In this document: one piece after another, positions 46 to 32,194 of the stretch
How positions within the stretch are numbered: position 1 is the stretch's first letter
Layout of the letters: the number at the start of each line of letters is the position of its first letter
From: Candidatus Altimarinota bacterium
Lineage (GTDB): Bacteria > Patescibacteriota > Gracilibacteria > BD1-5 > UBA2023
Direction of reading: 5' to 3'
Assembly (NCBI GenBank): GCA_947373235.1
Contig: CANBWW010000001.1
Coordinates: forward strand, 1 to 32,276
DNA: 32,276 bases
The notes under the pieces: model-generated
Told to the model about the DNA's origin: nothing
Database searches by the model: none
The model's input: only the letters and a program-made list of their open reading frames with translations
Translations under genes and position numbers: made by a program

Positions 46-3000
46 ATGCAGTTTCGTTTTTATCAAAAATATACATCTGCAATTCTTATTTTCCTCCTTT
101 TTCTTACTCAGACTGTTCAGGTCTCTTTTTTTGACCATACAGAAGCTGCTACAGAGGATTATCATGATGTGGTTTCTATCGTTGTCGATACTGACACGTA
201 CAGCGAATTGAAGTGAGATATTAAGCAATATAGTCAAGATATACAGACCTACCTCGGATCTACTCGAGTGTCTCTTTTTGTCGTTCCAAAAAATACTCCA
301 CCGGAAGCGATCGCTGCACAAAATGAAAAACTCTATTACCAGGGGGACTGAAAGGATGGGGTTTCATCTCTTGTAGGGACTATTTTGATCGGAAATGTTC
401 CGATTCCAGTTGTCGAAAAAGATGGAGAATCGTTCCCAAGTTTGTATCCATATGTGGATTTTGATGATAAACGTTTTGTGTATGATCCTCAGATAGAAAA
501 ATATACTTTTTCCAAAAATACTAATGAAACCAGTGATGTAGAGATATGGCATGGAGTTATCGATCCTGCACTCGGAAGAGCTTGGAATGGCGAAAGTGAT
601 ATCCAGAAAATAAAATGATTTCTTGCAAAAACTCATGAATTTTATCAAGGAAAATGAAAATTCACACCTTCAAATATACCTCCACGGGTATTTTATTATG
701 ATGGTTATAATGAAAGTGCAGCAATCGGTTCGAGAGAGTTATATCAGTATGCACTCTTTATAAAAAATGCAGAAAATATCGCATATGGTCGTTTTACAAA
801 ATACTTGCTTTCTGATATCAATGATGCCCTGAAACTCTATGATGCAACGAGCCCTGATAGTATAAAAACGACCGATATCCCGAATTTTTCAGAACTTCAA
901 AAAGAAAATCCTGATCTTGCGAATATATCTGGTGATACTCTCACACCAGATATGCTCAAGAACCTTTCAGATATACAGAGTCAAAATATTATCAATAGTT
1001 TTATAAAGAGATTTTATGAGATTATTAATTCCAAAACTCTTGGAGATGAACGACTCTTTGTCCATAATGCTGGTCGATACAATAATGGATCTGATGTACG
1101 GGTTGATCAAGGTTCTGTGGATGTTTCTTTGCTCGATGAGACTGCCCTCAATACTATAAAAGGTGCAAATGATGCTCTCGAAACAGCCATCAATAAAGTT
1201 ATCACTGATGCGAATTATGCTCGTAAAATCCCTATTTTTGATTCCTATCAGAACTATAAAAATACTAATGATTATGATAATACCAGAGATGCGAATAAAG
1301 TGTATCAAAATTATTTTCTCGGAACAAAAAGTACCCAGATCACCGATCCAAAACAGTGTACGATTGCAAGATGATCGACTATAAATGAGCAAAGTCAGAT
1401 GTGAAAGGGAATACTCGTAGAAGCAAATACAACTTTTGATATTAATTCTATTTCATGACAGATTGGTTACCTTTCTGGTGATACTGATGAACTCGTAAAA
1501 CTTCATAAGTCTTCGGATTATTCTTGTTTTGATCCGAACACGAGTGAACCAAAACTGAATTCTTACTGGCGGAATAATAGTTTTCTCAATTTTTCAACTT
1601 CTCCTTCGACGAATCCAACAGATATTCTTTTTGGTCCTCTGTGAACTGCGAGTTTTACTGGTATGAGTCTCCCGATTTCTTCCCTCGGAGGGATGAAAGA
1701 ATCAGACCGTGTAACTGCACCGTCTATCAATAATTGTCTAGATAATTCTTATCAATTCGCACTGCTTCAGCCATATACTTTTTCTTATGATATTGGTTAT
1801 CGGTCTCATGGATCTGATGAATCTTATAGTTGTAATTCTTCTTGGCCAGATGAATGGAATACAAGTGGGGCTTATGGTTGTCAACAAAGAAGTACAGAAA
1901 CTCCACGATTTACGTGTCTCACAGAACAGGTTCCTCTTTCACAAAGTATTTCTACAAAATTTTCTGATCGACTTCCCGATTATTCATGACAATCATGTTT
2001 TGCATGAAATCTTACACTTGATGGAAAAGTTATAAAAACAGCAAATAGTCCTTGTATATACTATGATAGAGGAGATGATAACTCTCATCAACGTGATGAT
2101 ACAGTGTATCAAAATCTTTCTTATCATACGATTCCCTCACTCCTTACGCATATTTCTCCAACGTCAGAAGAAATAGGTGCTGCAACTGCAAATTCTATCA
2201 CCCCAAACATCCCTGTGGATATGGTACGAAGTGTAGATTTTCTGACTCCAAAAGGAAATATAGCGACTTTTACGTATCCAGATTTTTTCAAAGCTCCGGG
2301 GAATACCGTTGCAGAAATGCGAACATACCTGAAGAATCTTTCAGAGAGTGAATGGAATAAAGTGATCACTACTGAAAATGGAACGAATTTGACCTCAAGT
2401 GAATCTGGTGCGAATCTTGCCTTGGGTGCAGGTATTTTGCCTTCGACTCCAATTGATTGGAATTCTCTGATTTCGGACAGTGTACTTATTCAAGTTTTGC
2501 AAGCTAAAAACTGGATGCATCCAGATGTTTCGAAAAAATATACAGATGCCCTGACGAGTGATCTTTCTTACAGTCATACTCTCTGAGGTGATGTGTCACT
2601 CGATCCTCCAAAAACTCCAGGAACTCGAGATGGATATGAGATAGCGTATCTTGGGCTCACATCTTTTCAGCCGACAGGGGAGAGTGGCTCAACTGATCAA
2701 AATACGAGTATACAGGCCTACAATCAAAAAATGGCAACGCTCCAAGGACTCAATGTTTCCGATACGGATATTTCAGATAATCCATCATCTGGGAGTGATC
2801 CATATCCAGATAGTACCGCGTGTGGTGATCCTGGATGAGTCGATATTTTTCAGTGGCCAGCAGCGGTTGCTTGTTGGATCAAGACCGTAAAACCAAAAAT
2901 TTCTTCTGGAATGTGTGGTGGAAATACTATTGGTATGGGCTTACTAAGTGTTCCAAAGGCGACTATTCCTGATGGTGTTTCGAGTGATTCTCAGGCATTG

Positions 3001-6000
3001 AAATCTTACTTTGATGCTTCTCAGCTTACTTATTCTCTTCCGAGAACGGTGATGCAAAAATCTGACTCCGTTTCTGTGAGTTTTGACTTTCAAAAAAATG
3101 GCGCTCATATCGACCTTCCAGAAAATACGAATGTAAAACTCGATATCATTTCTCTTACCGATACAGACGGAAAAAATATTTCTCTCGATAAATCGGATAA
3201 TCTTCTCCAAATTGCACCAGCAAGTCAGCCATATGGATCTGAAAAAACGACATTTCTCCTTACTTCTGGATGACAACTCTGAAGTGTAAAAATAAGATGA
3301 ACGCTGACGACTGCACTTCCAGATGGAACGACATACACAAGTTTTTCAGATGATATCGTCATAAGAATCAGCGATGAGTATCTCGATGTATCTCCGACCG
3401 TACAAGGCATAGAAGCAAGCTCCATCGATACAACCCTCCTTGATCCAGTGAAACTTTCGTTGACTGCAAAAAGCAATCAAAATAATGCCTCTATATCATC
3501 AGTACTTCCATATACACTCGATATCTATGATGATATTTCTGATGAATTACTTGCTTCAGATATTCAGATACATTCTTCCACTGACTATAGCATTCCAATT
3601 GATTATACCAAAAAAATCTGACTCTATAGATTTGAGATTCATGACCAAGCTTGAAGATTTGGGGAGGCGACTCTGGCAGTTCGTTCATGACCATTGGCAA
3701 AATCCAACTTCTTACCACTTTCAGACACGATTGTAAAAAATATTGATTCATACGGTGCGATCGATCTTCTCGATGCAAAAGATAATCTTCTTACACCAGA
3801 GCTTCATACCATCGAATTCGAAGCGCAAGGATGATATCTTGTCGATAGTGATGGAAAACATGTTCAAAAAATGTCGATACAAAGTATAGATAGTGAAATT
3901 CCCCTTGCTTTCGGTGCTGATGCTGCCTGAAAAATAAATATTTCTTATTCGATCGATGGAGTTGTGACGGCTTCTCGCCAGATCGACGTCGTTAATATAG
4001 CAAAAATAAAAATCAATCGTCGTTGAACTCCTGTGGTTGGTGGTCCGGCGGTTTCTATTTTTGCTGAAGTAGTTGATGAAAATGATCAGCTTCTTTCAGG
4101 ATTCCATTCTTCGATTTCATTTTCTCTTCCGACACTCGCGGGTTCTTTTGCTACTGGAACGGTTGCTATAGAAAATGGTAAAACAGATGATTTTTCATTT
4201 CTTCCTGGTCGTGTTGCTGGCCAACAGATGCTTTCTATATATGTTCCTGGAATCGGAACTATCCCAGATGTTCCGTTTTCTATTTCTCCCTGAGCGCCAT
4301 TTTTTATACAGTCAGCTCTCGGCGATGACTTTACGACTTTTAGTGTCGAAGACCGATATGGCAATCTTGTGCCAAAGGATTTTGTAGGAACTTTGCAGAA
4401 AGATGTTGATCCATCTCTACCGATAAACTTTACTGCGGGTATTTATAGTACACCAAGAACTCCTGGATATTTTACTGCGACCGTTCCAGAAATAGCCAAT
4501 TCGAGTATTTCATATACTGATACTGATGGAGTTCATACGATTTCTGGTATTCCAAGTACACCGATTTTTGTTCCTACACCGAAACAGAAATTTGTATTCC
4601 GTCCTGATTACAATGCACGATATACGGTTTTTGCTGGAGATAGTTTTTTAAGAGAATCAGAAAATATCCTCTATGACACAACTCCTGGAGCTTCTCAAAG
4701 TCTCGCCGCAAGTACACTTCTCACTTCACCATACCAGACAGAAAATTATTTTTCTATCTTTCCTGGAGGTGGATATAGCCTCTGAAATGCTTCGGATATA
4801 CTCATGAAGGCAAGTGCTCATCTGGAAAAAAATACATTGATTTTGGAAGCTTCTGACAGTGTGAGCCATACGCGTATTGCTCGTGTTTCCTATCCAACGA
4901 GTGGACTTCTTTCGAGTGTGTGTGAAGAAAGTTCGACAGACTCTCAAGATTGTCTGACCGTTCCTTCATGAGGAGGTATCAGATTTATTACGTATAAAGA
5001 TGGGCAATATCAGACTCAAAATGATGGAAATATCATGACGATCGCTCAGTCTGGAAATATCAAACTTCGTTATGATAGATCTGCATGACTCGTCCTCGCT
5101 GCTGGTATCACACTTTCTCCTGTTTCTGCAGATTCCAGTGCGGGACTTCTTCTTGATGTGATAGATGGAGACAAGTCGATCGGTCGTATATTTCTTGCAA
5201 CTGATCCAAAACTCTGAGTACAAAAATCAGCTGATATATTTCTTCCAGCTTCGACTCCTGTTCTTGAGTCTACTCATCCATATTTGGAAAAACCAGTCTA
5301 TTCACAGATTTTTGATTCCCAAAATGCTGGCTATAGTATCTATACCAAACCAAAAACATCGGATCTAGATGAGACGATGATCGGACCAAATTTTATAGAT
5401 TCTCTCGGTTCTATAACGGATACTGCTGGTGTCGGATGGCATGATAAAAATCGTATGATGCTTTCTTATAGCGCTGGCGATACCGTGGGTGAAGCAACCA
5501 AATGGTTTCAGACGTATACGATGGTCAATCTCTGAGATCCAGTCGCCCATGTAGACGTATGAGCGGTTGGTACAAATCAAGAAGGGATCGATCGATCGAT
5601 CGGTACGGAACTTGCTTCTGGTGCACGTGGAAATATTGTTTCTGTTGCCCATCATGATATGAACAATGATGGCTATGAAGATGTGATCATAACCTATGAT
5701 GATGGTTTTGTGGAACTCTATCTCAATCTGAATGGTCGTTTTAAAAAAAGTCAGATGATCGGATATGTACCAAATATTTCTCCTGATCAACTTTCTTTTT
5801 GAGATTTCACAGGAGATGGTTTTTCCGATATTATCGGACTCAATGATTCGGGATGACTCCTCTTCATCGATAATAGTGATAGAAAATTTGTCCAAAAACC
5901 AATTTCTCTCGATGATTCCTCCGCTTCCATTCCAGATCATATCACTCAGTATAAGATCTACGATATGGACGGAGATAAAAAGGAAGATATTGTTTATCTG

Positions 6001-9000
6001 ACTGAAGCTTGAGAACTCTGAGTTCTTTATGGAACACAGACGGCATGAGTTTTTTCGAAACATATAGCGGACTCGAGTTTATGAGTTTCACTTTCACCTG
6101 ATGCAGAAACTGGATGAGGAGTTTTTCATGCAAATACAGTACCAAACACTGTTCCACAGAGTACCGATCCAGAAAATGATACGAGCCTCATTCAGGCAGA
6201 TGTCTACTATCATCGAACACTTCCGAGTCCTTCGAGTGATTCGACAGTGACCTATTCACAAAATGATTCAATCGATACTATTACCAATCTTTCTCCATCA
6301 AGTCCACAAAATGCGACTACTTCCAATTTTGTGTATTCAGAATATGCACCTGCTTTTGGTCTCGATATACAAAAAACATATAACAATATTTCTGCTGCAA
6401 AACTCCATGCAGGGGATCTTATACAAGTGGATATCGCACTGAAAAATACAACCACGAGTACACTGTCACAGATAGAATATCTAGATACGATTCCCAAGAT
6501 TTTTGATCCGAAAGATACAAAAAAATATCAACTCATTATCGATAATGAAGCAACAGAGAAAAACTTTGTTCCACTCACGAGTGGTGATTTTGATGCTGAC
6601 TTTATAGGAATGGATATTCCTGCAGGAAAAACCCTCCATATCCGATATACTCTGAAGGCACTTCCTACGACTTATGGAGAGATGCAGGTGGGAAATCTCC
6701 AAAAATGACAAGTATGAGAAGATGGATATTGAGATATTTGATTCAATGCTTCTACGACCTGCGGAACGAGTATGATGCTTTGGAAATCTACGTCTGGACG
6801 TACTTTTTCGAAGGGAAGTGCTGATTTTTCTCAGCCGATAGTTCCTACGAGTATCCAAAATCAGATCGATCAAACCAATGGTGAAATCGCGGGTGCCCAG
6901 CATCTTTCGAGTACGAGTTCTACACTCTGAGCATTGACGAGTGACTACAATAATATGTCTGAATCAAATGGTTCTGTATCGGCCCCGTTTCAGGCAAATG
7001 TACAACAAAGTGGTCAAAATTATGTAGCATCACTCGATCCAAGTCCTGCATTTACTCAAAAAGTAACGACCATGGCTCAAAATATTGCAGATTGACTTTC
7101 TTGTGGATTTGGTGGGGGGTCATGCATGTCTTTTCCTATGAACTGGGCACCACTCGCACCAGGAAGTGATCCGGTTCTTTTTGGGAAACCTGTCGGAGAT
7201 GGTCTCAAAGTAGGCGAGGGTATTCCTCTTTTTAGTGGATTAACCGGATATCCTTTGCAAGTTGGTCCTGTCTGTGTCCCGATTCCAGTCGTGTGGCCTG
7301 CATCACCTTTGGCATGGCCAGCCCAAACATGCCCAACTTCAAACTATGAAGCTGGATGGGCAGAAGTCGGGTCGATCTTGGCATCAGGATGACATCAGCC
7401 AGCTTCACCACTTTTAGGTGCCGGTTGAATGTTCGGTATATCGAGTCCAACTAATTTTCTCAGAATTTTTGTAAGCCCAACACTGACCCTTGGAGTTTGA
7501 ACTGCTATCTGTATGGGTCCAGCAAATATATGATGACAATTTCCACCGAAATGACTTTCACCATTTATTCCATGAGGAAACTGTATCGTTCTGGCAAAGC
7601 CGATGAATGTCTGTAAGGGTGATGGTTCAAGTGCTGATGGAGATGTTCAAGGGGTTTCATGACTGTGAAGCGTGACAGATGCATGGAATGCAGGAAGTTG
7701 TAGTATAAAAGCAGATACTTCTACGGATATCGCAACCACCAATAAACAAACAACACAAGATATTATCTCCTATTTACAAAACCCAGATACCAAGAAAGTA
7801 AATGATATCTATGCTTCTCTGGCAAAGAGAGGTCCTCGAAATCTCTCTTCAGGATGACCACTTCTGAGTATGGGTGATAATAGTTCCTGAACGAAGATCG
7901 ATGTAGATATCGATACGACGAAACCCTTCGATATGCATAATATCGTGAAGGTCAATAATACTCGTATTCCAGGTTTTCCTGATTTTATTATGGATTGGGT
8001 CGCACGTCAGACGGATGAGATTACGAATAAGCTCATGACTCCACCGAATATTGTCGTTATTCCGCCAAGAAATTTTAGTCAATATGGAACTTCGGATAAG
8101 AGTTTTTCAAATTTTTCTGATGCATTTAGTCAAAAAGCATATGTCGATGCGTATGCGAATTTCCAACAAAAACTCTGACAAGCGGGAAATACTGATGTTG
8201 CTTCCAAGCTCACAAATATGACCACTTCTCATAGTGATCTTTCTGCTGGGTATGAGAAGGCACTGGATGGATTTATCCAAAATCATGCTTCTGCCTTAAA
8301 TAGTGCAAAAGGTGGAGTAAATCAAGCAAATGCGGTCTTCCAATTTCTTGGTCAACTTCCATTTCTGAAGGTACAAAAAACGCAAGTCGCGATCAATGTT
8401 CCGTGGATTCTTCCCCAAGAACTCGATCGATATGCTCGTACTTTATCTCAATATTCAGCTGAACTTGATAGAACTGAAAAGCAGTGGTGTGCAGGAAAAA
8501 CTGCTGCCCAATGTACCGATATTCATGCGAATGCCAATGTTTCTGCACTGCGTACAAGTATCCAGAAAAATTTGGCGATGATCGAGACGTATAAACATTT
8601 CCCTGATAAACTCCAAAAATATCTCACTTGGAAACAACGATACATTGCTGAAATCATGTGTAACGTGAACGCTTTCGAACAGATGATCGGAGGATGGTAC
8701 AACGATAACGGTATCCGATTTCGTAAATGGGCCGAGTTCTATGTGCTCGTCAAGACAGTGATGGAAAGTTGGCAACCAGTGATTGATATATTCAAAAAAT
8801 GAGATGCTCAGTGTTCTGTCTGTCGAAATGAACGATGAGATCTAAAATACTATAAGATCAAACTTATCAGTATACTTATACCGACCCTTCCGATTATCCA
8901 ATTTCCGAGATGGCCAGATATTGTCCTCGATCTTTCTGATATTCGTATGTGACTCACGATCGCCGTACCAGAATTTAACTTTCGTATCAATCCGATCCGT

Positions 9001-12000
9001 CTTCCAAATCTTCCGCTCTTAAATCTTCCTGCACTTCCATCGATTGGTCTTTCATTGCCACCACTCCCGATCCTTCCAGCGATTCCAAATCTCCCAGATT
9101 TACCAGATCTTCCATCATTTCCTCGTGTACAACTTCCATCGCTTCCACCACCACCAAAACTTCCAAAAATATTTGGTTCTCTTTCAGCATCTCTCTGACT
9201 CCTACAACTTTTCCAGAAAATCCGTTGCTATATGGAGAAAACGATTCTCGTCCCAGAGTGGCAAGCTGGATCAGTGATCGCTGATAGAACAGAACGACAG
9301 GGGACATTGAATCTCGATTTTCTCAAAGTACAACTTCCACAGTATGCTGTACCAACTATCCGAGAAATCCGAGTTTCTACACATATTGACTTCGAAAAGA
9401 GGACAGATTTTATTACTGAATTCGCACAAAAAGCGGTGAAACCAATAAACTCATTTAGTGCGGATATACAGGGAAGTGTCCAAAGTTCTCTTGATAAAGC
9501 TGGGCAAGATGTCCAAAATGTTGGAGCTGGAATACAAAATGGAATCGATAATGCAACGAAGGATCTCAAAAATATAAATCTCAAAGTCGATGCCAATGGA
9601 AAAGTCATCCAATCTTCACTCGATGAATCGAATGAGGATTTTGATCAAAAGACTTTTTCAGGGTTGATCGCTTCACTCACATCTGAGAAAGATACACTTC
9701 TGGATACAGATGATTTTACAGATGATTTATTGAAAGAAATGCAACATGCTTGAGAAGATACCACCGTTTTGAAAAATTCTCTTCAAAAATCTAAAATAGA
9801 AAGTGACGAGATAACGAAGTGAATGGAGAAAAATTTCCATGAAAATATGCAGCTTTTCTATAAATATCTCAATGCGGAAACAGCTGATACGAAGGAACAA
9901 GAAAAAATGATCGAACGACTCAAGTGAGATATCCCAACACCACTCGTAGATGCCGATTTACCACGTGCGCATTTTGTTTCTGATGAAAGTAGTCTTTCTG
10001 ACGGAGCTCTTGATGATTATAATTCAGCTATTTTAAAAAATCAGAATACAGCTCAGATTTCTGTCTCATCAGGTAATTCGAATATTCAGGCTACAGAACA
10101 TCTTCAGTGAAAATTGGGTCGCCTTCTCGCTGCCAATACTCTCTCTACGCCCACAACAACCCCATCTGATACGAGCTATGCCCCTTTGTATACAGGTATT
10201 TATGTACTTACACCGAGCGGAGTTCAGACAAAATTATTTGATTATACAGATATTCTTGATCCAGCTGAGAAGCCACAAGTTTTTGATTTTGATAAAGATG
10301 GTGACGCTGATTACCTCTATATTCTTGGATGAGTTGTCTATGTAAAATATTCTTCCTTACATACACCAAAGAAAACTATTGATACCGATATAAGTTTTAG
10401 TGATCTCGATATTTCTGCTCGTCCACAGGCTCCAAATTTCTTTGATGAAACAATCTCAAGTCCAGGGAATATACAACTCTCTTTCACTCCTGCTGACGAG
10501 AGAGATCGTGATTTTCGCCTCGAATTTTTCGATCGATATACTCAATGGGATCTTGCTACTCTCAATGAATGAAAGCCAGATCTGAATGCACCAAAATCAA
10601 CGGTTGATTTTTTTGTAGAAGATCCCGGTGATACACAAAAATCCGATGGATTAGAAGTGACAGCGATTCCTGAAGTTCTCCAATCAGTCGATCATCCAAG
10701 TGGATTTATCCTCCAAGGTATGAGTGGTGTTCCGCTGAAATCTGGTACCAACTTCACACTCACCGCTGGAAGACCAATCTATACTGGAAATACTGCAGTC
10801 CGTTTGACTTATACTCTCAGTTCAGGTGTTTCTCAGTCTCTCGATATGAAAAAATATCAAAAATATGTCTTTACAGGAGATATTTCTGCTTCGATCGTTT
10901 CAGGAAAAGCATATATTTTAACACAAAGTAGCTCTGATCGTTTGGTGTATTCTGATGATTTTATCGGTATGCCGATCCTTCCAGGTACACATATCATCAA
11001 CACGGACTGATGATTTACTCTCTATAATCCAAGTCTTGATCGTTCAACGGATATTTCTACAAACGAAGAATACAGAAGTGTGTGACTCTGAGTACCTGAT
11101 GAAAGTTACCAAGTAAACTTTCCATACATGAATGGTTTGTATAGTGGAAAACTCACCGCACTTTCTCCAAGAAATCATGATCCTGTCTCTGCAGGAGTGA
11201 CACTCTTAGCACCGCTCGCTGCTCTTGATAACAGTGCTCCAGTTGTCGATATCGCTTCAAAAATCCAGATTCCGGTATATGGAAAAATGGATTTTGATTT
11301 GAAAGATATTATTTCTGATATGAGTCCGACTCATGTTTCTATTGATCCTGATACGACCGTCGATGAAGATAAGAACTGAGTGTATGATGATGATTTTGTA
11401 AGTGCATGAACTGGTGTTAAAATCAATTCAGGTAGTATTGTCTTTGGTCCTTTCGATAATCTTGGAATACATATGATGAATCTGAATGCAGTCGATGCCT
11501 ATGGAAACCAAAATCTCGTTCCTTTAGAGGTTGATGTATTTGCTCCGATTCCACAGATTAAAAATATCGATACGAATGGTATCATTCATTGATTGATTGA
11601 TCCGATTACTACACTGGAACCGATTCATTTTTTCAGAATTCGTACCGGAAGTCCATTGAAACAATTATTTCCTTCGAGTACTCTTACAAAAAATGATGGA
11701 ACTTTCGAGACAGGAAGCGTGTTTATTGGAAGCGGTGTAGATCTCACTTTTGGTGGAACTTCTCATATATTGGACCAAAATTCCTGACTTCCATCGACTG
11801 GAGATAATCTCAAATTCACTGTTGCATCCGCGACAAAAGATCATCCAATGATTTTTACTATTCATGATTCATCTGGAACTTCTATCCTTGATCAGACGAT
11901 TTCTCTTCCCGAAAATACTCGATTCATGCTCAATCCAACAACGACTGATATACCAAAAGTTCCAAGTGTCGTGATCAATTCTTCTCAAGGATATCTTTCA

Positions 12001-12237
12001 CAATCAGCAAATCTTCTCGATAAGAATATTCCATGAGGTGTCTATATCACCGATAATTCCTACAATCCTATTGCCACGATTGCACAAGATGGACAGATAT
12101 ATGCAATTGTTTCTTGAGTAACTCTTTCCGCAAAAAAATATGGTGAATTTCTTTCGACCAGTATTCTTTTGAACTGAAAAGAAATCACAAATGTGAAATA
12201 TCTGGTGAATTTCTTTTATACTGTCAATAATCACTAA
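46..12237 (+). CDS. Giant secreted/surface multidomain protein (4063 aa when TGA=Gly); likely adhesin or host-interaction protein, overall function unknown
   Basis: Frame +1 has no TAA/TAG from position 1 to the TAA at 12235-12237 but carries about 74 in-frame TGA (manual codon scan). All 20 track ORFs from 385..618 to 11848..12036 lie in this one frame. The ATG at 46 is followed by a signal-peptide-like MQFRFYQKYTSAILIFLLFLTQTVQVSFF. Recognisable pieces: FG-GAP/VCBS-like Ca-binding repeats (DMNNDGYEDVII, GDFTGDGFSDII, YDMDGDKKEDIVY at ~5560-6060; FDFDKDGDADYLY at ~10280-10320), Ig-like (Big-type) segments at ~4030-4400, a DUF11/CARDB-like segment at ~6390-6700, and a Leu-Pro repeat at 8992-9165. 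The frame is open to the left edge, so an upstream start cannot be excluded. Confidence 0.85.
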
Positions 12238-12269: not shown

Positions 12270-12305
12270 TATTCTCTCAAAAAATCGAGAGAGAATATTC
12301 TTTTT
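12270..12305 (+). terminator. Rho-independent terminator candidate after the giant gene
   Basis: Inverted repeat tattctctc / gagagaata (12270-12278 and 12289-12297) followed by ttcttttt, 33 nt after the TAA stop. Confidence 0.55.
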
Positions 12306-12353: not shown

Positions 12354-13886
12354 ATGTTTCCACGTGTTACTATCGTCGGTCGTCCAAATGTCGGAAAATC
12401 TAGTATTTTCAATGCTATGTCTGGTCATCGTATCGCCATTGTTTCTGATATCGAGAATACTACTCGTGATCTTATAGAGTACAAAATTACTGATACAGAA
12501 CGGGATATTTCGTATATTTTGGTTGATTCTGGAGGTATTGTTGAGGCGGATAATGAAACACTTCTTGCTGATGTTCGTGGTCGTGTAGATGACGCGATCG
12601 AGTCTTCGGATATTATCCTTTTTGTTCTGGATTATGATCGAGTGACGGAGTTCGATGATCATATCGCTCGCAAACTCAGAAAATCTGGAAAAAAAGTAAT
12701 CGTCGTTGCAAACAAAGCTGACAATCCAAAAAGAGCCATGGAAGCCTACGAGCTTATGAGTCTTGGTCTTGGTATCGTTGTACCAGTGAGTGCTATGCAA
12801 TCTCGTGGCTTTATCGAACTTCAAGATGCGATCGTCGCAGAGCTTCGTACTCTCGATCTTGCTGTTCCAGCCGATATTGCTGGAGAGAATCCTGATATGT
12901 TGAAATTGGCGATCATTGGTCGTCCAAATGTCGGAAAATCTTCTCTGGTAAATGCGATCTCTGGAGAGATACGTACGATCGTGAAGGATATGCCCGGAAC
13001 GACTCGTGATGCAATCGATACGATTATTTCTCATAATAATGAGGATATCTGTCTGATCGATACAGCAGGTATACGCCGTGCCGGGAAGATCGGATCTGCA
13101 AATATAGAACAGTGGAGCGTGATGCGAGCAGAAAGATCCATCGAACGAGCTGATGTGGTGGCAGTCGTGATGGATGCATTCGAAGGAGTTGCCCATCAGG
13201 ATGAGCATATCGTCGGTGAAGCTAAAAAAGAAAAGAAGGGAATTATCCTCGTGTTAAATAAATGGGATAAAGTCCTAGCAAAGCCAGACGTTGATAAAGA
13301 TACTATTCTTGAACGATATATGCACTATCTTTCGAAGAAGTTTGATTTTCTTTCATATGCTCCCGTCGTCTTTACTTCTGCGATCGAAGGTCGTCGTATT
13401 GATCTCATCCTCGATCATGCACAAAGTATCCAAAAAGAACGCAATAAACGTGTAAAAACATGAGTATTTAACAAGTTTCTTGATCAGATTACCTATGATC
13501 ATGCACCAAGTGGAAACCGAAAATCTCATAAGCCAAAAGTGTATTACGGTTCTCAGGTTGATGTGAATCCTCCTCGCTTTGTGATTTCTGTGAACAACTC
13601 CGATCATTTCCACTTCTCCTATGTCCGCTATATAGAGAATAAGATTCGCGAAGTTTTCGGATTCGAAGGAACTCCGATCGATATAGAAATGCGTTCACGC
13701 AAGAGTATCTATAAGAATAAAGATAAAGATATCATGAAGGTCGAGTCTGGAAAAGAAGAAGGAGATGAGAAATATGAACACAATATGGAAATGGTCGAAA
13801 AACGGAAGGAAGATACCAAGAAAAATATGAACAAAAAGAAGTTTAATAATTATGCGAAACGAGATGACAAAAGAAAACGTAATTAA
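12354..13886 (+). CDS. der: GTPase Der/EngA (double GTP-binding domain plus KH-like domain) with a Lys/Glu-rich C-terminal tail
   Basis: Two GRPNVGKS P-loops (MFPRVTIVGRPNVGKSS and KLAIIGRPNVGKSS), DSGG/DTAG and NKAD/NKWD motifs. Track ORFs 12354..13463 and 13539..13886 are in one frame, joined through TGA at 13461-13463 (KRVKT-G-VFNKFLDQI...PKVYYGSQVDVNPPRFVISVN..FEGTPIDIEMRSRK). Stop is TAA. Confidence 0.95.
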
Positions 13887-14880
13887 AATCCAATCTTCAG
13901 GGTCATCATTTCTTTCAAGAAGATTTTTGATCATTTCTGCAATTTTGACAGGAGTATGATTTTTCCTACAGTACTTCACTTCAGGATTTTTGAGCCTTCT
14001 GGTAGCATTTTTCCAGATCACTCTTTTATCCATTTTTGTTGTGAGTTTTCGATTTCTTTTTTCTCGAAAAATACCGTTTCGATTCCTGTTTTTTCGTTCT
14101 GCACTGTTGTTTGGAAGTATTGCTTGATTTTTTTCTGCACTGATCCTCCTCTTTTCTTTCTATCAAAATAGTTTTCCAGGAGCAGTTTCAAAAATCACAC
14201 TTTCTGATGGTGATCGTACGATTGTTTTTATACAGATGTCGCATATTGCCATACCTGATTTCTATGAAAAAATCCATACGGATCTTCTGAGTTTGAGTCA
14301 TTCTTGATATCTCATATATGCCGAATGAGTCCGTCCAGGAAATGAAGAAAATACTCAGAAATTCCAAAATCTTCTCGGAATTAAGCTTACAGAAAATACC
14401 TATACCAAAATAGCCGATACCATCGGTATGCAATCACAAGGGAAAGAAATTTTTTCATGAATTTCAACGGGAAGTATTAAGAATGTAGATATTTCTATAG
14501 ACGATATCATGAAAATGGTATGAACTGGGTCTATTCGTCCACAAAATCCTCCACTCGATATTGAAACCGAACTTGAGGCTCTTCCTGATGGAAAAATTCC
14601 TCCACTTTCTCAGTACATTATCCGTGCAGTTTTGAATATGATGATCAAAACTAATGCTGATACGGATACATTTCTTGGAAATATGATCGACCCAAATCTT
14701 TTTGAAACGATTCTTGGAAAAAGAAATCAATATATCACAGATACGTTTCTCCACTCAGATGATAAAAACGTTGTATTTTTGTATGGATCGCTCCATTTCT
14801 CTGGTATTTATAGCATCTTACAGGCAGAGAATCCAAATTGGAAGATCATCTCTATAGCACCATATTATCCATATAAATAA
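13864..14880 (+). CDS. Membrane-anchored protein, possibly Tiki/TraB/GumN superfamily (338 aa)
   Basis: Frame +1 is open from 13687 to the TAA at 14878-14880, with 6 in-frame TGA. About three N-terminal hydrophobic helices (FLIISAILTGVGFFLQYF, GFLSLLVAFFQITLLSIFVV, ALLFGSIAGFFSALILLFSF). The soluble domain has TraB/GumN-like landmarks: IVFIQMSHIA, YAEGV, FLYGSLHFSG. Start is ATG 13864 (alternative ATG 13852) and overlaps the der 3' end. The family assignment is weak. Confidence 0.6.
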
Positions 14881-14997: not shown

Positions 14998-16977
<1,980 letters not shown>

Positions 16978-16984
16978 TCAATAT

Positions 16985-17014
16985 AAAAAACACACTTTCG
17001 AAAGTGTGTTTTTT
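16985..17014. terminator. Bidirectional rho-independent terminator after ftsH
   Basis: Perfect 18-nt palindrome cacactttcgaaagtgtg (16991-17008) flanked by A6 upstream and T6 downstream. Confidence 0.75.
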
Positions 17015-17031
17015 ATAAGTTCTATAAAAAC

Positions 17032-17059
17032 TTGCAAGCCGAACTTCATTCCATACAAT
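17032..17059 (+). promoter_or_regulatory. Sigma70-like promoter candidate for the pilin gene
   Basis: TTGCAA (17032-17037), 16-nt spacer, TACAAT (17054-17059), 24 nt upstream of ATG 17084. Confidence 0.4.
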
Positions 17060-17083
17060 AATTCTCAATTCCTCATTTTTTCT

Positions 17084-17668
17084 ATGCACTCCTTTCGTTT
17101 TTGAAATTCGGGTTTTACTCTTTTTGAGATGATGATAGTTATAGCTATCATTGGTATTATGTATACTTTTACGCTTGGTTTTACTGAAAATCCATCCATT
17201 TATAGGGAAAAATCTATCCGCCTTCAGAGTTATATAGAGGATGAACTCAAGTGAGCGCGCACAAGTACTATGATCGGAAAGTGACCAAAAGACGCGAGTA
17301 ACAATATATTATTAGTTCAAAGACGTGATGTTCTCATATCCACTGGGAATGTACAGACGATATATTCCTGAGCGACGAATACTGGAACTGAACGACAAAT
17401 AAAATCCCCTTTTTTTGATGGAGATGCCAAGTATAAGCTTAATAAGTTTTATGGCACATGTGTTCTAGGTAATACTACTTTTTCCTGAGTGACACAAGCA
17501 AAAATCACGTACGAACAAACAAAAGATATCCAGATTATCACTGTTCCAACAGTGTGTATAGCATCGGCTGATTCGATTCGAAAGATTACTTTCGAATCCC
17601 AGTATCAAAATTATACAGGTTCGGTTACTCTCGATCGTATTTCTGGGATTATTTCTACAGATAATTAG
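17084..17668 (+). CDS. Type IV pilin / pseudopilin-like protein with prepilin N-terminal cleavage-methylation motif (194 aa)
   Basis: MHSFRFGNSG|FTLFEMMIVIAIIGIM: class III signal with Gly at -1 (17111-17113), Phe +1, Glu +5 (17126-17128) and a hydrophobic helix. Two C-terminal Cys (GTCVLG..., TVPTVCIAS) are compatible with a pilin disulfide loop. Six in-frame TGA; stop is TAG at 17666-17668. Confidence 0.85.
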
Positions 17669-18795: not shown

Positions 18796-21700
18796 ATGCG
18801 AAATATCAATCGTATTTTCCTTTCTTTTTTCGCTTTCTTTTTTGTTGCGACTCTCTGATATTATGCGTATCTTTTGTCTTTTTGAACCCTTTCATTTGCA
18901 TTCTTTTGAACCGAACATCAAGAGTGAAATCTCCTTCAAATTATTCCTGAAAAATCTGATTTTTTTATAAAGTCCAATTCTAAAATTATTGATCCTGACG
19001 CAATAAAATCTTCTCTTTTTTTCTGAACTCAAGCTCTCCTTACTAATCCTACACTTTCTGGAGAATATAAAGTATCTGTTTCTGGAGAGCTCGTATCTGT
19101 TTCTATGGATCTCAAAAAATGAGAGGTACTTACACTCTCAGCGAAAGCATATAATAAAAATAAAAAAACCTCTGTACAACTTTCCCAGGATATCACACTT
19201 TCTGAACCTATTTCTCGTTATCCAAAAAATCTTCAGTTTCAGCGTATTTGAGAACCAAGAGATCAAACATACAGAGTTGATATGTATGGTTATGATAATA
19301 TTACTCCTGAAGATATCAGGTATTATGCACACTATAAAGTTGGTCAAAGTTGTACTATTCAGGATTCTTGGCAATACATGCTTCCCATAAAGATGCACCC
19401 AATTTCACCAATTCGGAAAATTGGTCAAATTTCTGAAATGGATTTTACTCTGGATTATGATATTTCGGAAGCACATATGTGCCTCATAGGTGGATTTGCT
19501 GGAAATATTTCTCCACTTGAAGATCGTACGATCGTTCCCTTTGTGATCACGGGATCGACTCTGCAGGTTCTTTCTCCAGAAATCGATATGAAAACCCAGT
19601 TGGAGTTTCGTTTTTCATCTCCCATATATTCTGATACTGGCGTACTTTATAGTTCAGAATATATATCCAATCGAGAACAAGCGAAGATAGATTTTTTAAA
19701 ACATCTTGATGTTAATTCTGATATCAAGATCCTTCCTGAAGATATTGTTCTTGCTCCTGATCGTGCCACGATCACACTTCCACTCGAAGAAGGGAAGGAT
19801 TATCATTTTACTCTTCGCGATCTTGAGGATATTTATGGAAGAAAAGCAAGTCAAGAATATTATATTACTCCTCAGAAAGAACCATTTCTTTCGCTGCGTT
19901 TTTCGAGTGATCGCAGTATATATGCAAAGGGTGAAAAAATTCCAGTCAAGCTTTACGCACTTTCCACTCCGAAAAATAGCTATAGCCTCAAATTGTGTCA
20001 GGTTTCACTCGATCCGTATAGCCGTCTTGAGCGTATTGTCGATGAATCTGATCTCAAATATAGAGATTCAGTTTATAATATTTTAAATTCCAAAACGGAT
20101 GCGTTTGGATGTGTAAAAAAAGACATTGTCTTATCAGGAAGTGGATATATTTCACCTTTTGATGTTACTGATCTCATGAACAACCAATCTCTCAAAACCG
20201 GTTTATACGTGCTCTATTTTCGAGATCAAAATGATACCGCTTCTTTTCCTCGATTTATCAAACCTCTTGTTTTTTCTGTTGTTGATACACACCTCACTAT
20301 GAAGGTCGATGCGAGTGGAAATATGCTTATACTGGCGACAGATTTACTCACAGGAAAACCTCTTGTTGGACAGGAAATAACGGCGATGAGAAATATTTCT
20401 CGTACGTATATCGATAAATATGATCAAAATACACAAACCTCCACAAAAGAATATTTACCTCTTTCTGCTCAACGTTTCGCAACGGGAATTGTTTTATGAA
20501 AAACAGATTCTGGTGGATTTCTCGAAATGCATCTTGATTCCTTAAAGAATATAGAAGGGTATGATGATACTCCTTATGGATTATCTTTTGAGAATTGGTG
20601 GGAATATGAGGGGCGTTATGATAGTTTTCTCGTAAAATCTCAGTCATCTGATCGCATGGGTCTGGTCGTCAGCACATGGAATGATGGAATTACAGGATTT
20701 AATTTTTGACTGAAAGAGTCAGATTATTCTTATCAAAATCGTCCCAATTATACATCTTTTCTCAATACTGATCGAAAACTCTATCTTCCATGAGAAACCG
20801 TTCATCTTCATGCGATTGTCAGAAAACAAGGAAAATCTGGAATGATGGTTCCTAGTGATACGCCATTTATACTTTCTGTGACTGATTCTCTCTGAAAAGA
20901 AGTGAAGCATGTTCTTTTAAAAACGAATACGTATGGATCCCTTGGAGCCGATTTTATACTTCCTTCCGATACGAGTCTTGGTTCTTATAATGTCTCTCTT
21001 TCACTTGCTGATAGCACCGAATATATAGAAAATTCGAATACCTATTTTCAGGTAGAAATTTTTAAAAATCCGACGTTTACTCCCAAAGTAAGTCTGAAAT
21101 CGAATGATATAGAAAATGATACAATAAAAGTACTCAAAAAAACTGAAAATACAGATCCAAATTTTCCATGGTACAGTGATTTATATACTGGGGATTTTGG
21201 AGTCGATGGTATCGTCCAGTCTTTTTATTACAATGGATCGCAAATGAAAAATATTCCATTTACGTATCGCATATATCGAAGTGAACATTATAGTGATGAC
21301 TATTTTTCTGATTGTTTCTGGGGTTGTTATTATGAAGCTCCACTCGAATTTTACACAGAATGAACCTGACAGATCGATGCTGATGGGTATGGTATTTTTC
21401 ATGTGCCGATTCACTATACTTCTTACTATAGTGATTATAACTATACTGCAGAAATCACGATCCGAGATCCAGCTACTGGTGAAGAAGTGACGACACCGTC
21501 GAGCCTTCTTGTGAAACTTCCTCTTGCATATAAGACATTTACCCCAGAAAATCCACTTATTTTTACTCCGAATAAAAAAATCCTCAATCCAAATGAAGAT
21601 TTTTCTGGAACATTTTCTCCTACTTATGGAAAATGGGATGCAAGTATAGCTTGAAAATATCACTATCAAATCCTCCATAGATCCTATGAAGAAACCATGG

Positions 21701-24609
21701 TCGATGATATACGTGCCGGGTCTGTCCGAGTAACCAATCCAGTTGATATGATTGTGGAAAGTGGTTCCGTCGAGCGTACAGATTTTTCGACTCGATTCAA
21801 TAACTATCCCCCTTGAGAATATCATTTTATAGTGACACCTGTTATGGATGGTAAGGTGCCTGAAGAAATGATTTCTGATACACTTTTTTATATTTCTGGC
21901 GATACTTCTTCTTTGAAAGATTCGAAACTTCGAGTTATTCCCGATAAAACTATATATCAACCAGGAGAAACCGCTCATGTCATGATTCAACTTCCATTTA
22001 CAGGATCATATTTATTGATTACGGAAGAAAAATGAGGCATTCTCAAAAAAGAATACACCTATGTTACAGGAAATACACTTATGCGAGATATTGTCGTCGA
22101 TGATAGTCTTCTTCCAAATGCATATATAGGTGTGGTAGCATTACATCCGTCTCTCTGAAGTATACTTGATACCAATCGAAGTTATGCTGTTTGATATGGG
22201 GAAATTATTTCTGATATATCTTCTAAGAAATCTATCGTTACCATAAAAACTGATAAAGAAACCTATAAAAATAGGGAACACGTACAAATGGATCTTTCAC
22301 TGACTGATAAAGGAGGAAAACCTCTTCAATGAGAGATCACTGTGATGGTTGTAGATGAAAGTCTGATACGTCTTTTAGGAAATATTGATCTCGACATCAT
22401 ACCAAAATTTTTCCAGAAATTTCCATTTACGATGAAAACATCACTTTCAGATATTGGTATCGAAAGAAATAGATACCTCTCACGAAAATGATCCAATGGC
22501 GGAAGTGGTGATAAATGAGGATGAGGAATACAGATAGCATCACGAACGATTTTTAAAAATACTGCTTACTACAATCCAAGTGTTATTACCGATCCTTCTG
22601 GAAATGCAAAGATTGGATTCGATCTTCCTGATAATGTTACTGATTATCGTATCATTGCGATTTCGAATACACTCGATTCTCATTTTTGAGCTGGAGAAAA
22701 AACTATACAAGTTCGAAAAGATTATGTCGTCGAAGCACATGCTCCCACGATCGTTCGACAGGGTGATACTTTCACCATTTCTACAAATGCCTTTAACAGC
22801 ACTAAGAAAATAACGGGAGCGAATTTGATTATCAAAATCGGTACCGGATCCAGCATGATACAAAAACAGTCATCTATTATACTTAATCCACTTCAGTGAA
22901 CTGGTTCAGATTTTCTTTTTTCTGTTCTTCCTTCTTGGACAGGTTCTCTTTCCTATACTGCCGAATTAAGAGATGGAAATATGGTTTTGGATAGTGTGAC
23001 TCAAAACTTGAAAATCGCACCGATCCCGCTCATAGAAAACACTTTTCGGTCTGTTCATGTTTTTACTGGAACTTCTTTGACGATATGACTTCCGCCGCCT
23101 GAAAAAAGTACTGATCTCGATTTCTCGAAAGTTGGATTAGAGTTTTCTCTCTTTCGTGCGAGTGAATTAAGCAATTCTTTTAACTCGCTTCTTTCATACC
23201 CCTACGGTTGTATCGAACAGACGATAGCGGCAACTCTTCCAAATCTTTTTGCACTCAATTTTGCCGATACCTTACATCTTCCGATTGATCGAAATGAGGC
23301 GATCAAGAATCGTGATGCGTGATTGCAAAAAATCCTTCGCATGCAAGATCCAAGTGGTGGATGGTTGTATTGGGAGGGAAATACAGAACCAGATATTCAT
23401 ATCACTCCATATGTATTGCGCTCACTCCTTGTATTGAGAGATCTTGGAATATCCGTTCCTCAGTCAGTGATCGATCAATGAATAAGCTATATTATCACGA
23501 ACCAATCTTCATATGAAGCTGATCAAAATCTCTTTGCTGAATCTGTATGGACACTTGCATCTTTTGCTCAACCATGAACGAAAGATTGGTGGAATCGCAT
23601 AGATCCAACAAAGCTCGATCGGCATGGATATCTCGCATATGTATATACTGCACATATCCTCAAACTTGATACATCTTTGCTCGATAAAAAACTTGCTGAA
23701 AGTATGAAAAATACTCCAAAGAGTGAAGATTACTGGTATTGGGATCGTGATGCTGATTTTGCTATCTATGCTCGTCTCCTTATGGATCAATGAGAGGATT
23801 CCAGGGCTCAAGAAATCATTACCGATATTCTTTCTCGAGTGGATATGAGTTCATATTATGTATCTACACAGACAAAAATTCAGATTTTTCTGTCACTTGC
23901 TCGAGATATTAGAAATCAAAAAATGAATTTTTCACCGTTTTCCGTCGCTCTGCGATGAGACGGTATTATCACAGATGCTCATTTTTCCCTCCAAAATCCT
24001 CTTGCAAATATAGAAACTCTGAGATCAAAACTCTGACTTTCTTTTCAACTGACTCGTGATCCAAATGATCACCCACTATTCATCACAATGAATATAAAAG
24101 ATCGTCCAAAAGATATTTTTCAGATGCAAGGAGTCAGTGCTGGATGAATGAATCTCAAGAGAAGTTTCGAACTGATTGATGAATCTCGATGAATTGATTC
24201 TGATGGACATTTTATCGTTTCAAAGCCAGTAGATGATATGATTTTTCATCGATGACAACTCTATCGAGTCACTTTAGAATTAGATTTTGATACAGACATT
24301 CCATATTATGAAATGACTATGGAAGACTTTTTTCCTGGTTGATGGAGACCGATTGATAGTATTCTTCGTACTGAGAGTAGCTTTCATAGTGAAAGTGCAC
24401 CATGAACTTATTGGGATCATGTCGAGTCACAGGATGATCGTCTTCTTGCAAATATGTCATATGGATATGGTAAAAAACAAATTTATAGTTATTATATACG
24501 TCCGGAAAGTGTTTGAGAATATTTACTTCCACCAGCAACTGCCTATCTTATGTATCGACCCAGTGTTCATAGTTATACACAGTACGAAAAAGTAAAGGTT
24601 GTAGAATAA
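18796..24609 (+). CDS. Bacterial alpha-2-macroglobulin family thioester-containing protein, N-terminally membrane anchored (1937 aa)
   Basis: Frame +1 is free of TAA/TAG from ATG 18796 to the TAA at 24607-24609, with about 37 in-frame TGA; track ORFs 19282, 20527, 20902, 21403 and 21832 are all in this frame. Thioester motif LLSYPYGCIEQTIAATLPN (CIEQ at 23209-23220). A2M C-terminal receptor-domain-like end MEDFFPGGWRPIDS...WDHVESQDDRLLAN...YSYYIRPESVGEYLLPPATAYLMYRP. The N-terminus MRNINRIFLSFFAFFFVATLGYYAYLLSF is hydrophobic and has no lipobox Cys. Confidence 0.9.
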
Positions 24610-24811: not shown

Positions 24812-25254
24812 AATGCCCAAAATGTAAAAATCTTGATACGAAAGTAATCGATTCTCGAAGCACCGAAGACGGAAAGGCTATCCGAAGAAGGCGAGAGTGT
24901 GAAAAATGTGGCGCACGTTTTACGAGTTTTGAACGTCTCGAATTCGTATCATTTCTCGTCGTGAAATCTTCATGAGAAAGTGAGCCTTATGACCGAACGA
25001 AGGTACAAAGTTCTATGCTCAAAGCACTTACGAAACGTGCTTTTATTCCAGAAAAACTCGAAGATGCGATCAATGGACTCGAAAATGAATGGGCACAAAA
25101 TAAGCAGGGAATTACATCGAAACGTATCGGAAGAGATATACTGAGAAAACTGCGTGATCTTGATGAAGTAGCATTTCTCCGATATGCATCTATCTACCAT
25201 AATCATGACAGTGTAAAGTGATTTGTGAAATTCATCGAAGATGAGCTCGGATAA
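24808..25254 (+). CDS. nrdR: Transcriptional repressor NrdR (zinc ribbon plus ATP-cone, 148 aa)
   Basis: [45 protein letters not shown] (CxxC...CxxC ribbon), then ATP-cone VVKSS-G(TGA 24973-24975)[10 protein letters not shown]...[29 protein letters not shown]. Reads through a second TGA at 25219-25221; stop is TAA at 25252-25254. Confidence 0.93.
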
Positions 25255-31610: not shown

Positions 31611-32194
31611 GATTTTCTGTGTGCTAATCCTGATAAAAGGATTATCGTGAGAAATATGAGAAGTGCCATTCCTGGAATTGTCAGAAATCAAAATACAAAA
31701 ACTCAGTTATTATCGGTACATGCAGGAAGGAGTCCTCAAACCGTACAAGGAAGCTCGACGATCCTTCAGAGAACCCATCATTGGAAGTGATAATAGTAAT
31801 GATATCCAGCAAAAAATGACCCAAAAAGTGCAAGTATGAGTATGATAATATGATTTTTCCGAATTCCATAAAAAAGTGATATCAAAACGATCACGTCTAT
31901 CGGAAACATGAAAATCCTCTGCCACCAACAGAGTATACAAACTTCGAGCTCATAATAGAACTGATAAGTAAGGACTCATACGGTTGAACCTATTGCCAAA
32001 AAACCAATTATTCGCATACAATTTTCGTATGATAGAAATCTATCAATATGTTTTCTTGTTTTTCCTCCGAAAAGGATACCTATAGTGAGGATAAATGTGA
32101 GTAGAAAAACAGTAATACTTCCGATTCCTAAAATGATAGAGTATGTGTGGAGATTCATATTATGAGTTATAAATATTATGATGTTGTGCATCAT
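31607..32194 (-). CDS. dsbB: DsbB/BdbC-family disulfide bond formation protein (start uncertain: 195 aa from 32194, 136 aa from ATG 32017)
   Basis: Track ORF 31976..32194 continues through TGA: ...YYELEVCILCWWQRIFMFP (the CxxC-x2-QR signature of DsbB, CxxC at 31928-31939), further TM segments, and a second Cys pair PCTVGGLLPAC. Stop is TAA at 31607-31609. An extra hydrophobic N-terminal segment is present only if the start is at 32194 or 32158. Confidence 0.75.

Follow-up and report, generated by a model that had tools for sequence, protein, structure and literature searches.

Tiny genomes and a dependence on other cells mark the Gracilibacteria, Absconditabacteria and Peregrinibacteria. Giant surface proteins have already been described in Absconditabacteria, Gracilibacteria and Peribacteria (PMC8080830, PMC6851277, PMC4736985). 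The Absconditabacteria member Vampirococcus lugosii encodes ten predicted giant surface proteins of 1392–4163 amino acids (aa), the largest of which (VAMP_16_20, 4163 aa) is annotated as 'hypothetical', and also two large alpha-2-macroglobulins (PMC8080830), while Peribacteria have large extracellular proteins, some very cysteine-rich and two annotated as integrin FG-GAP (PMC4736985). In two groundwater Gracilibacteria, VCBS 'adhesion' proteins, which may or may not be orthologues of the product studied here, were detected by metaproteomics (PMC11452946). Here we analyse the first 32,276 nucleotides (nt) of contig CANBWW010000001.1 from a Candidatus Altimarinota bacterium (hereafter, the window), 12192 bases of which (37.8%) are taken up by a single gene for a 4063-aa protein. 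The gene adds one member to the recognised class of giant surface proteins in candidate-phyla-radiation (CPR) bacteria, and its product is probably a Sec-exported, disulfide-stabilised, non-repetitive, multi-domain and vertically inherited cell-envelope protein.

Among the described systems, the Vampirococcus giants are comparable by description only. They too come from a code-25 CPR lineage, their largest protein is of ~4.1 k aa with a predicted surface location, integrin/DUF11-type domains have been reported in them, and alpha-2-macroglobulins of ~1.9–2.4 k aa co-occur with them, as in the window; function there is inferred too (PMC8080830). Our analysis delineates one widely conserved orthologous family and two conserved modules without known counterpart, and both the family and its modules are concrete targets for structural and cell biologists. 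Shredding of the gene under translation table 11 and mistranslation with Trp under table 4 have left this family nearly invisible in standard resources. About 1% of a ~1.3-Mb genome is given over to the giant gene in this lineage, and the gene stays intact and collinear over very deep divergence, and the protein is likely to be central to surface building or host contact.

One uninterrupted gene with TGA as a sense codon

The complete coding sequence (46..12237), recognised by an open reading frame (ORF) scan and through collinear full-length orthologues, lies on the forward strand, as do all parts of the protein described below. It runs from an ATG at position 46 to a TAA at 12235–12237 and contains 74 in-frame TGA codons, which we read as glycine. 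Between base 1 and base 12234, frame 0 is free of TAA and TAG, against a chance expectation of about 90 (Poisson P about e^-90), and the other two frames contain 77 and 106 over the span of the gene. A simple codon-usage score is above zero in this frame only, and guanine-plus-cytosine (GC) content and composition are even along the whole gene. The first-pass annotation of this DNA had claimed a frame at 46–12237 for 4063 aa, with about 74 TGA codons, no other stop and 38% of the window, a description that proved exact to the base. Since the frame stays open to base 1, an alternative start upstream of the window edge may exist; orthologues have their initiator Met 8–30 residues ahead of the hydrophobic segment, and ATG 46 therefore fits as the start. 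A terminator-like hairpin with a T-rich tail follows 35 nt past the stop on the same strand (12272..12303); it is a consensus match only, from a search that found one such site compared with 0.2 expected in shuffled sequence.

The earlier requirement that translation use table 25 is borne out by conserved motifs. In neighbouring housekeeping genes, TGA takes the place of the invariant Gly in the Walker A loop of FtsH (LLQ-X-PPGTGKT, with TGA read as X), where it pairs with Gly in an HMMER alignment to Escherichia coli FtsH (7vhp), and it also occupies both Gly positions of the UvrC motif IDG-X-K-X-Q (IDGGKGQ) and the Gly of the MutY helix-hairpin-helix LP-X-V-X-P (LPGVGP). Of the 310 Gly codons in the giant gene, 74 are TGA. 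When the gene is aligned to the orthologue at locus L003, 42 of the 74 TGA codons (57%) stand opposite Gly, compared with 53% for GGN codons, and none stands opposite Trp, the position taken by 25 of 28 TGG codons. Because TGA falls on invariant Gly and aligns like GGN and never like Trp, these alignments show that TGA is glycine in the source organism (code 25). A search of the window for a UGA-decoding tRNA-Gly found none, nor any other tRNA gene.

The use of TGA in the orthologous giant genes varies hugely, with no simple tracking of GC. Oral GN02-type genomes at 39% GC (loci among L011, L006, L010 and L003) have 2–7 TGA per ~4110 codons, the window gene 74 at 38% GC, L008 89 at 45% GC and L019 281 at 25% GC, TGA apparently being the main Gly codon of the last.

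A family shared by Gracilibacteria and Peregrinibacteria

For a first orthologue search we queried with the central 756 aa of the giant protein. This query matched fragments on a 1.27-Mb chromosome and a 290-kb scaffold, and once TGA is a sense codon the fragments of each locus join up as one frame (4349 and 4110 aa, respectively). The window protein is collinear with both products from residue 6 to the end, with 37% identity over 4259 columns to that of L003. A genome scan, with one genome per GTDB species, yielded 18 loci in metagenome-assembled genomes (MAGs) labelled Gracilibacteria, 'Peribacteria' (mislabelled), 'Patescibacteria group', 'Ca. Altimarinus' or 'uncultured bacterium', with human oral GN02 genomes among them; the nearest is Gw_Eff_bin_120 (82% identity in the core). 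Ten loci contain the whole gene, always as one uninterrupted frame (3803–4514 aa, GC 38–56%, 2–89 TGA), and an eleventh (L019; 25% GC, 281 TGA) extends beyond 4647 aa. The proposal that this is a single gene is thus upheld by one uninterrupted, collinear frame in ten other species, and comparison with the orthologues revealed neither a set of separate genes nor a chimeric assembly, two of the outcomes named beforehand as speaking against it. The giant gene is one intact gene, read with code 25, of a Gracilibacteria-type bacterium.

With word-indexed searches, the core retrieved 12 proteins and the N-terminus 19, and no Pfam domain was present in any of them. An exhaustive hmmsearch with a core profile (A4) over 1.84 billion cluster representatives returned 780 at E ≤ 1e-3, of which 374 at E ≤ 1e-30, and the much smaller reach of the word-indexed searches is explained by damage to the public gene calls. 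Many of these representatives are full length (3600–6066 aa), and in them the core occupies much the same relative place. The core of the window protein matched family fragments at E 1e-26 to 1e-178, and blastp of the whole protein against full-length members gave E 1e-35 to 0 over the core; with ten of these members, homology is collinear through the N-terminal domain, FG-GAP blades and core and into some of the C-terminal region. The window protein has the order typical of the family, namely signal peptide, N-terminal alpha/beta domain, FG-GAP, core and C-terminal beta region in 3.6–6 k aa. A domain scan of the ten full-length members found SLH in four and FG-GAP_3 in seven. By this measure of sequence and order, the giant protein is a member of a large, vertically inherited Gracilibacteria/Peregrinibacteria envelope-protein family, for which we found no published name and no paper defining either the family or its core.

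Database names are 'hypothetical protein' or 'VCBS repeat-containing protein' for Ca. Gracilibacteria members and 'FG-GAP-like repeat-containing protein' or 'S-layer homology domain-containing protein' for Ca. Peregrinibacteria members, and distant members are also called 'uncharacterized repeat protein (TIGR01451 family)' in their source. Public gene calls for the family are damaged, in that table 11 shreds the gene into 4 to ~20 ORFs (loci L001–L004). Two further entries, P0061 (4164 aa) and P0053 (4642 aa), contain ~6.5% Trp and ~1% Gly, and are therefore evidently code-25 genes translated with code 4, with TGA as Trp.

Deposited Gracilibacteria orthologues, among them MDD2487531.1 (4224 aa, named 'hypothetical protein') and MCD5380636.1 (4004 aa, named 'VCBS repeat-containing protein, partial'), share family, architecture, code and size class with the window protein, and blastp against P0037 gave 27–32% identity over nearly the whole length. 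The deposited Gracilibacteria orthologues differ in that they come from other species, with 25–62% identity, and bear automatic names only. Further away, the Peregrinibacteria giants MBI2464194.1 (4699 aa), MEI7510804.1 (4057 aa) and MFH1218449.1 (4173 aa) have a collinear N-terminal domain, FG-GAP, core and LPxLPPPPK motif, and also share part of the C-terminal beta region. They differ in using the standard code and in carrying C-terminal SLH (in some, TSP3) modules that are absent from the window protein, to which their identity is ~22–30%.

Domain organisation of the giant protein

Behind the predicted signal peptide lies an N-terminal alpha/beta domain (aa ~38–210; 157..675) with the motifs NEKLYYQGDG, LVGTILIGNVPIPVV, YPYVDFD and EIWHGVI, which is conserved as far as the Peregrinibacteria members. 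For structure prediction with AlphaFold2 we used orthologue fragments as targets, P0017 for the N-terminus and P0013 for the core, and not the window protein itself. The P0017 model (mean predicted local distance difference test (pLDDT) 65.5; predicted template modelling score (pTM) 0.55) has pLDDT 70–89 over residues ~50–170 and suggests a flavodoxin-like three-layer sandwich. A Foldseek search of this model against the PDB gave no match at E ≤ 0.001, the best being generically flavodoxin-like (lumazine synthase, E 0.012).

The following region (aa 211–1000; 676..3045) has no recognised fold and no database relationship. It contains nine conserved Cys (438, 494, 564, 624, 651, 670, 926, 943 and 957) and is partly confident in the P0017 model, as mixed alpha/beta. 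For the N-terminal ~1000 aa as a whole, searches that included profiles revealed no Pfam, NCBIfam or PDB relationship, and a permissive Pfam scan of 25 N-terminal fragments returned scattered noise only.

A beta-rich region (aa 1001–1849; 3046..5592) is the most variable part of the protein, its identity to the nearest complete orthologue (13–37%) being the lowest found. Sub-threshold Invasin_D3/Big_1 matches of two orthologues (24.6 and 19.3 bits against a cut-off of 33) both map to aa ~1218–1316 (nt 3697–3993), and in one distant member a Glyco_hydro2_C5 beta-sandwich above threshold stands ahead of the FG-GAP blades. The giant protein may thus contain an immunoglobulin-like (Ig-like) beta-sandwich, as far as these orthologue matches can be carried over.

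Three FG-GAP/VCBS beta-propeller blades follow (aa 1850–2005; 5593..6060). Pfam FG-GAP_3 (PF13517) matches aa 1871–1930 with E 1.9e-13 (51.2 bits, cut-off 26.9), and a blade hidden Markov model (HMM) derived from the family finds three blades (i-E 1e-16 to 1e-20) and no further ones. Calcium-binding DxDxDG loops at aa 1871, 1920 and 1973 (DMNNDGYED, DFTGDGFSD and DMDGDKKED) are conserved in orthologues. The calcium-binding repeats named in the first-pass annotation are thus real; they are the only assignment in the window protein above Pfam thresholds, and cover less than 4% of it. The likeness to integrin alpha-type FG-GAP/VCBS proteins (PF13517, PF01839) consists in these three blades with DxDxDG loops above threshold; the rest of the window protein is unrelated to them, and three blades are detected here of the seven that a complete propeller would have.

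Shortly after the blades, aa ~2106–2206 (6361..6663) are a candidate DUF11-type (PF01345) beta-sandwich, as sub-threshold matches in orthologues suggest. Those of L011 (DUF11, E 0.035; DUF7927, E 0.07) and L018 (DUF7507, E 0.054) map to the same position of the window protein, aa 2106–2206, and other members give DUF7507 (P0106, E 0.0042) and TIGR01451 (P0010, E 0.059), also below threshold. The Ig-like and DUF11/CARDB segments proposed earlier have no Pfam match at E ≤ 1 in the window protein; what survives of that proposal is the weak, position-consistent signal in its orthologues.

The core of ~800 aa begins with a Gly/Pro/Cys-rich module (part 1, aa 2340–2560; 7063..7725; Gly 17%, Pro 11%, Cys 4%) in which seven of eight Cys are conserved. 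The motifs CGFGGGSC-S-P-NWAPLAPGS and GGNCIV-AKP-CKGDGS contain columns that are invariant across ten distant members. Part 2 (aa 2561–2960; 7726..8925) consists mainly of long helices according to the P0013 model, and alignments A1 and A3 include the motifs GFPDFIMDWV-RQ-EE--NKL and C-x-V-C-R-N-E-R (Cys 2923/2926). A Leu/Pro-rich segment (aa 2961–3050; 8926..9195; Pro 23%, Leu 23%), for which the P0013 model predicts no regular structure, ends in an invariant LPxLPPPPK-P and is among the best-conserved parts of the protein. It is followed by a conserved post-proline segment (aa 3051–3150; 9196..9495) comprising an amphipathic helix, Cys 3061 and the motif VPEW-AG--IA--TERQG. Column identity is about 0.7 at aa 2850–3150 across 19 sequences.

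The P0013 model of the core, built from 11 sequences, has a mean pLDDT of 45.5 and is confident only at residues ~280–380, as a helical hairpin and a beta-hairpin; Foldseek with this model gave noise only (E > 4). The core has no Pfam family and, with the core profile searched against the PDB, no credible match. Within its Cys/Gly/Pro module, aa ~2401–2500 (nt ~7246–7545) form an indel-prone loop, the only 100-aa stretch at 59% identity between the oral strains L006 and L010, which are otherwise ~94% identical.

A charged, variable linker of low conservation (aa 3151–3400; 9496..10245), probably helical, leads to the C-terminal beta-rich region (aa 3401–4063; 10246..12234). Two conserved DxDxDG-type calcium motifs (aa 3414 and 3773) lie in this last region, whose C-terminal end keeps its position among orthologues; in Peregrinibacteria-type members, the homologous segment stands ahead of the SLH domains.

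Over its full length the giant protein gave no match at E ≤ 1 to PDB sequences, and an NCBIfam scan returned nothing above cut-off. About 3900 of its 4063 aa have no above-threshold family assignment, and roughly 90% has neither a Pfam nor a PDB counterpart; the earlier view of a mostly uncharacterised protein was right, and its figure of more than 1500 unassignable aa an understatement.

RTX/Bap giants such as LapA, SiiE and MpIBP are very large extracellular proteins that combine calcium-binding with beta-sandwich modules, features that the window protein would share; they consist of tandem near-identical Ig-like repeats and leave the cell by type I secretion, directed by an RTX signal at the C-terminus. 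The window protein differs from such adhesins in having a predicted N-terminal Sec signal, no internal repeats (self-blastp at E ≤ 10) and no Pfam match at E ≤ 1 to HemolysinCabind or other RTX families, and we rejected an RTX/Bap-type repeat adhesin on these three grounds.

Predicted export and envelope location

The first 34 residues (46..147) are predicted to be a Sec signal peptide, with a positively charged n-region (MQFRFYQKYTS), the h-region AILIFLLFLTQTVQV and a c-region ending in T-E-A followed by A. In a Kyte-Doolittle plot, aa 11–29 form the only strongly hydrophobic segment, with no other segment resembling a transmembrane (TM) helix. At the predicted cleavage site, all aligned orthologues share Ala in position -1 and have a residue that is small or neutral in position -3, so that the secretion signal read from the N-terminus earlier is retained as a prediction, with an A-x-A-type site. 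The absence of a C-terminal sorting signal or TM anchor, also noted then, is confirmed: the last 60 aa contain no LPXTG, and the C-terminus lacks a hydrophobic stretch.

Of the 28 Cys of the giant protein, 22 are conserved in all three full-length proteins compared, and the window encodes a DsbB homologue (31607–32194, reverse strand; Pfam DsbB, E 1.2e-8), which together point to oxidative folding outside the cytoplasm. SLH (PF00395) domains are cell-wall-polymer-binding modules; they occur at the C-terminus of the four most distant of the ten full-length members, after the region homologous to the C-terminus of the window protein. An extracellular or envelope location is thus supported by the predicted signal, by the conserved Cys and DsbB, by the FG-GAP blades and hints of sandwiches, and by SLH in distant homologues, the last being the most telling. 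In the window protein itself SLH has no match at E ≤ 1, nor in the Gracilibacteria orthologues at E ≤ 0.1. That the protein is retained on the cell is an assumption, and it may be released.

Vertical inheritance and gene neighbourhood

A single copy of the giant gene is present in the one complete chromosome sampled (1.27 Mb) and in each other MAG, two adjoining contig fragments of JAGOMW01 being counted as one gene. Its length and its order of domains are kept throughout Gracilibacteria and on into Peregrinibacteria. Between close relatives, divergence is evenly spread (standard deviation 2–10% per 100-aa window) with no hypervariable cassette except the indel-prone loop at aa ~2400–2500. Identity to L008 is 44% for the giant protein compared with 76–78% for FtsH and Der, and its rate of change is similar to that of the neighbouring alpha-2-macroglobulin and MutY. 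At the level of sequence, this pattern favours a vertically inherited structural envelope component and is unlike that of a diversifying adhesin, a polymorphic toxin or an RTX/Bap adhesin.

Downstream of the giant gene, Der, a membrane-protein ORF without annotation, FtsH, MutY and the alpha-2-macroglobulin are shared only with the closest complete relative, L008. In the sub-clade L013–L018, a TsaB/YeaZ-like gene and the gene for a ~190-aa membrane protein with a bPH-like motif lie downstream instead, on the same strand as the giant gene (L013 13934–15081, L015 13928–15212, L016 13707–14877, L017 14488–15066, L018 13963–14841), and tblastn with code 25 found neither gene in the window. These neighbours probably reflect synteny within a lineage and not a functional link.

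Possible roles of the giant protein

We consider it probable that the giant protein is a non-repetitive component of the cell envelope. In such a model, the signal peptide would route the pre-protein (~4063 aa, roughly 440 kDa) through the Sec translocon, with cleavage probably after Ala34. The protein would then fold outside the cytoplasm, where its conserved Cys would be oxidised, possibly with the help of the DsbB homologue encoded in the window, and would stay on the envelope as a long multi-domain surface structure. The N-terminal alpha/beta domain and the ~800-aa core would most likely provide self-assembly or attachment to the cell's own wall or S-layer, and in Peregrinibacteria-type members the added C-terminal SLH module would anchor the protein to the cell wall. 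FG-GAP blades and Ig-like or DUF11-like sandwiches commonly make up binding or spacer regions outside the cell. The protein may plausibly take part in cell contact, and its variable Ig-like region and calcium-binding modules may be adhesive, which would be compatible with a place in the envelope.

Several points weigh against this proposal. No fold is assigned to over 90% of the sequence, and the roles given to the N-terminus and the core are conjecture, the N-terminal model being only moderate and that of the core poor (mean pLDDT 65.5 and 45.5). The signal peptide was judged by rules of thumb, a heuristic of hydropathy and the -1/-3 column. The Gracilibacteria proteins have no SLH, LPXTG, TM or lipobox anchor, and conservation of neighbouring genes is limited to lineage-level synteny, with no partner that would indicate a pathway. 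Finally, gene and product are known here from sequence alone.

The first-pass annotation had called host attachment or attack plausible, and it is conceivable, if unlikely, that an epibiotic or predatory cell uses the protein as a host-specific adhesin or within its attack machinery, with binding modules that would recognise the surface of the prey and evolve with host range. FG-GAP, Ig-like and DUF11-like modules do occur in adhesins, the Ig-like region (aa 1000–1700) and the far C-terminus are the most divergent parts, and such a role has been proposed for the Vampirococcus giants and the Gracilibacteria VCBS proteins (PMC8080830, PMC11452946). However, the protein is present in a single copy per genome with constant length and domain order, tandem repeats are absent, close strains do not differ by a hypervariable cassette, and no toxin, lytic or enzymatic domain was found with Pfam, NCBIfam or the permissive N-terminal scan. 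The attachment or attack role is therefore not borne out: a single-copy, uniformly constrained, vertically inherited protein argues for a core envelope component. The two roles are not mutually exclusive, and that of a core envelope component fits the pattern better.

A more far-reaching idea, which we regard as speculative and rather improbable, is that the core and the N-terminal domain form an unrecognised envelope-spanning or host-membrane-engaging machine. Its parts would be the disulfide-rich Gly/Pro module, the helical bundle with C-x-x-C-R-N-E-R, the Leu-Pro/PPPP segment and the N-terminal alpha/beta domain. It would be, for example, the structural basis of an episymbiont-host junction or a feeding contact, and if true, Gracilibacteria and Peregrinibacteria would have in common a host-contact machine that goes beyond a passive adhesin scaffold.

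It is very doubtful that the protein is an extracellular enzyme or multi-enzyme in which the N-terminal alpha/beta domain or the Cys-rich core is catalytic, for instance in peptidase activity or wall remodelling. The N-terminal domain is strongly conserved, with an invariant W-H-G motif, and gingipain K is among the weak Foldseek matches of its model (rank 24, E 0.22, prob 0.84). However, the search has no match at E ≤ 0.001 and its best is a generic flavodoxin-like fold, and no profile of Pfam, NCBIfam or the PDB matches. A gingipain/C25 (caspase-like) peptidase was rejected for the N-terminal domain because there is no Cys in aa 1–437, which makes the Cys-His dyad of C25 or caspase-type enzymes impossible.

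That the gene is an artefact, whether a frame open by chance, a chimera of the assembly, or several neighbouring genes or a pseudogene joined through read-through of TGA, has next to no probability: table-11 pipelines do split orthologues into 4 to about 20 pieces, but nothing else speaks for it, and it is refuted by the one collinear frame in eleven species, including genomes with only 2–7 TGA in the gene, alongside the ~90 stops expected and none seen, a codon-usage score positive only in this frame, the Gly-like behaviour of TGA and the uniform composition.

Other genes in the window

The Lys-rich tail of der (12354–13886), which encodes Der with a long basic C-terminal extension, overlaps a 371-aa ORF as tentatively called (13765–14880, forward strand). 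This ORF has several hydrophobic segments and no Pfam match, and its counterpart at that place in L008, the closest relative, is 43% identical to it.

A type IV pilin-like gene (16919–17668, forward strand) carries the methylation motif G|FTLFEMMIVIAIIG (PF07963) at residues 63–81 of its longest ORF. The true start is probably an internal Met ~55 codons downstream. The long ORF overlaps the end of ftsH.

A PriA-like ORF of only 335 aa (25241–26248, forward strand) starts inside the end of nrdR and comprises a Cys-rich zinc-ribbon region and the C-terminal part of PriA. The N-terminal helicase half is not visible upstream, and the gene may be truncated, split or a lineage-specific short form.

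An alpha-2-macroglobulin gene (18796–24609, forward strand; 1937 aa, 37 TGA) has MG2, A2M_BRD, A2M, TED and bMG10 domains above Pfam cut-offs, an N-terminal hydrophobic segment and the thioester-type motif G-C-I-E-Q. Its presence in the same window as the giant gene matches the pairing of giant proteins and alpha-2-macroglobulins in Vampirococcus (PMC8080830).

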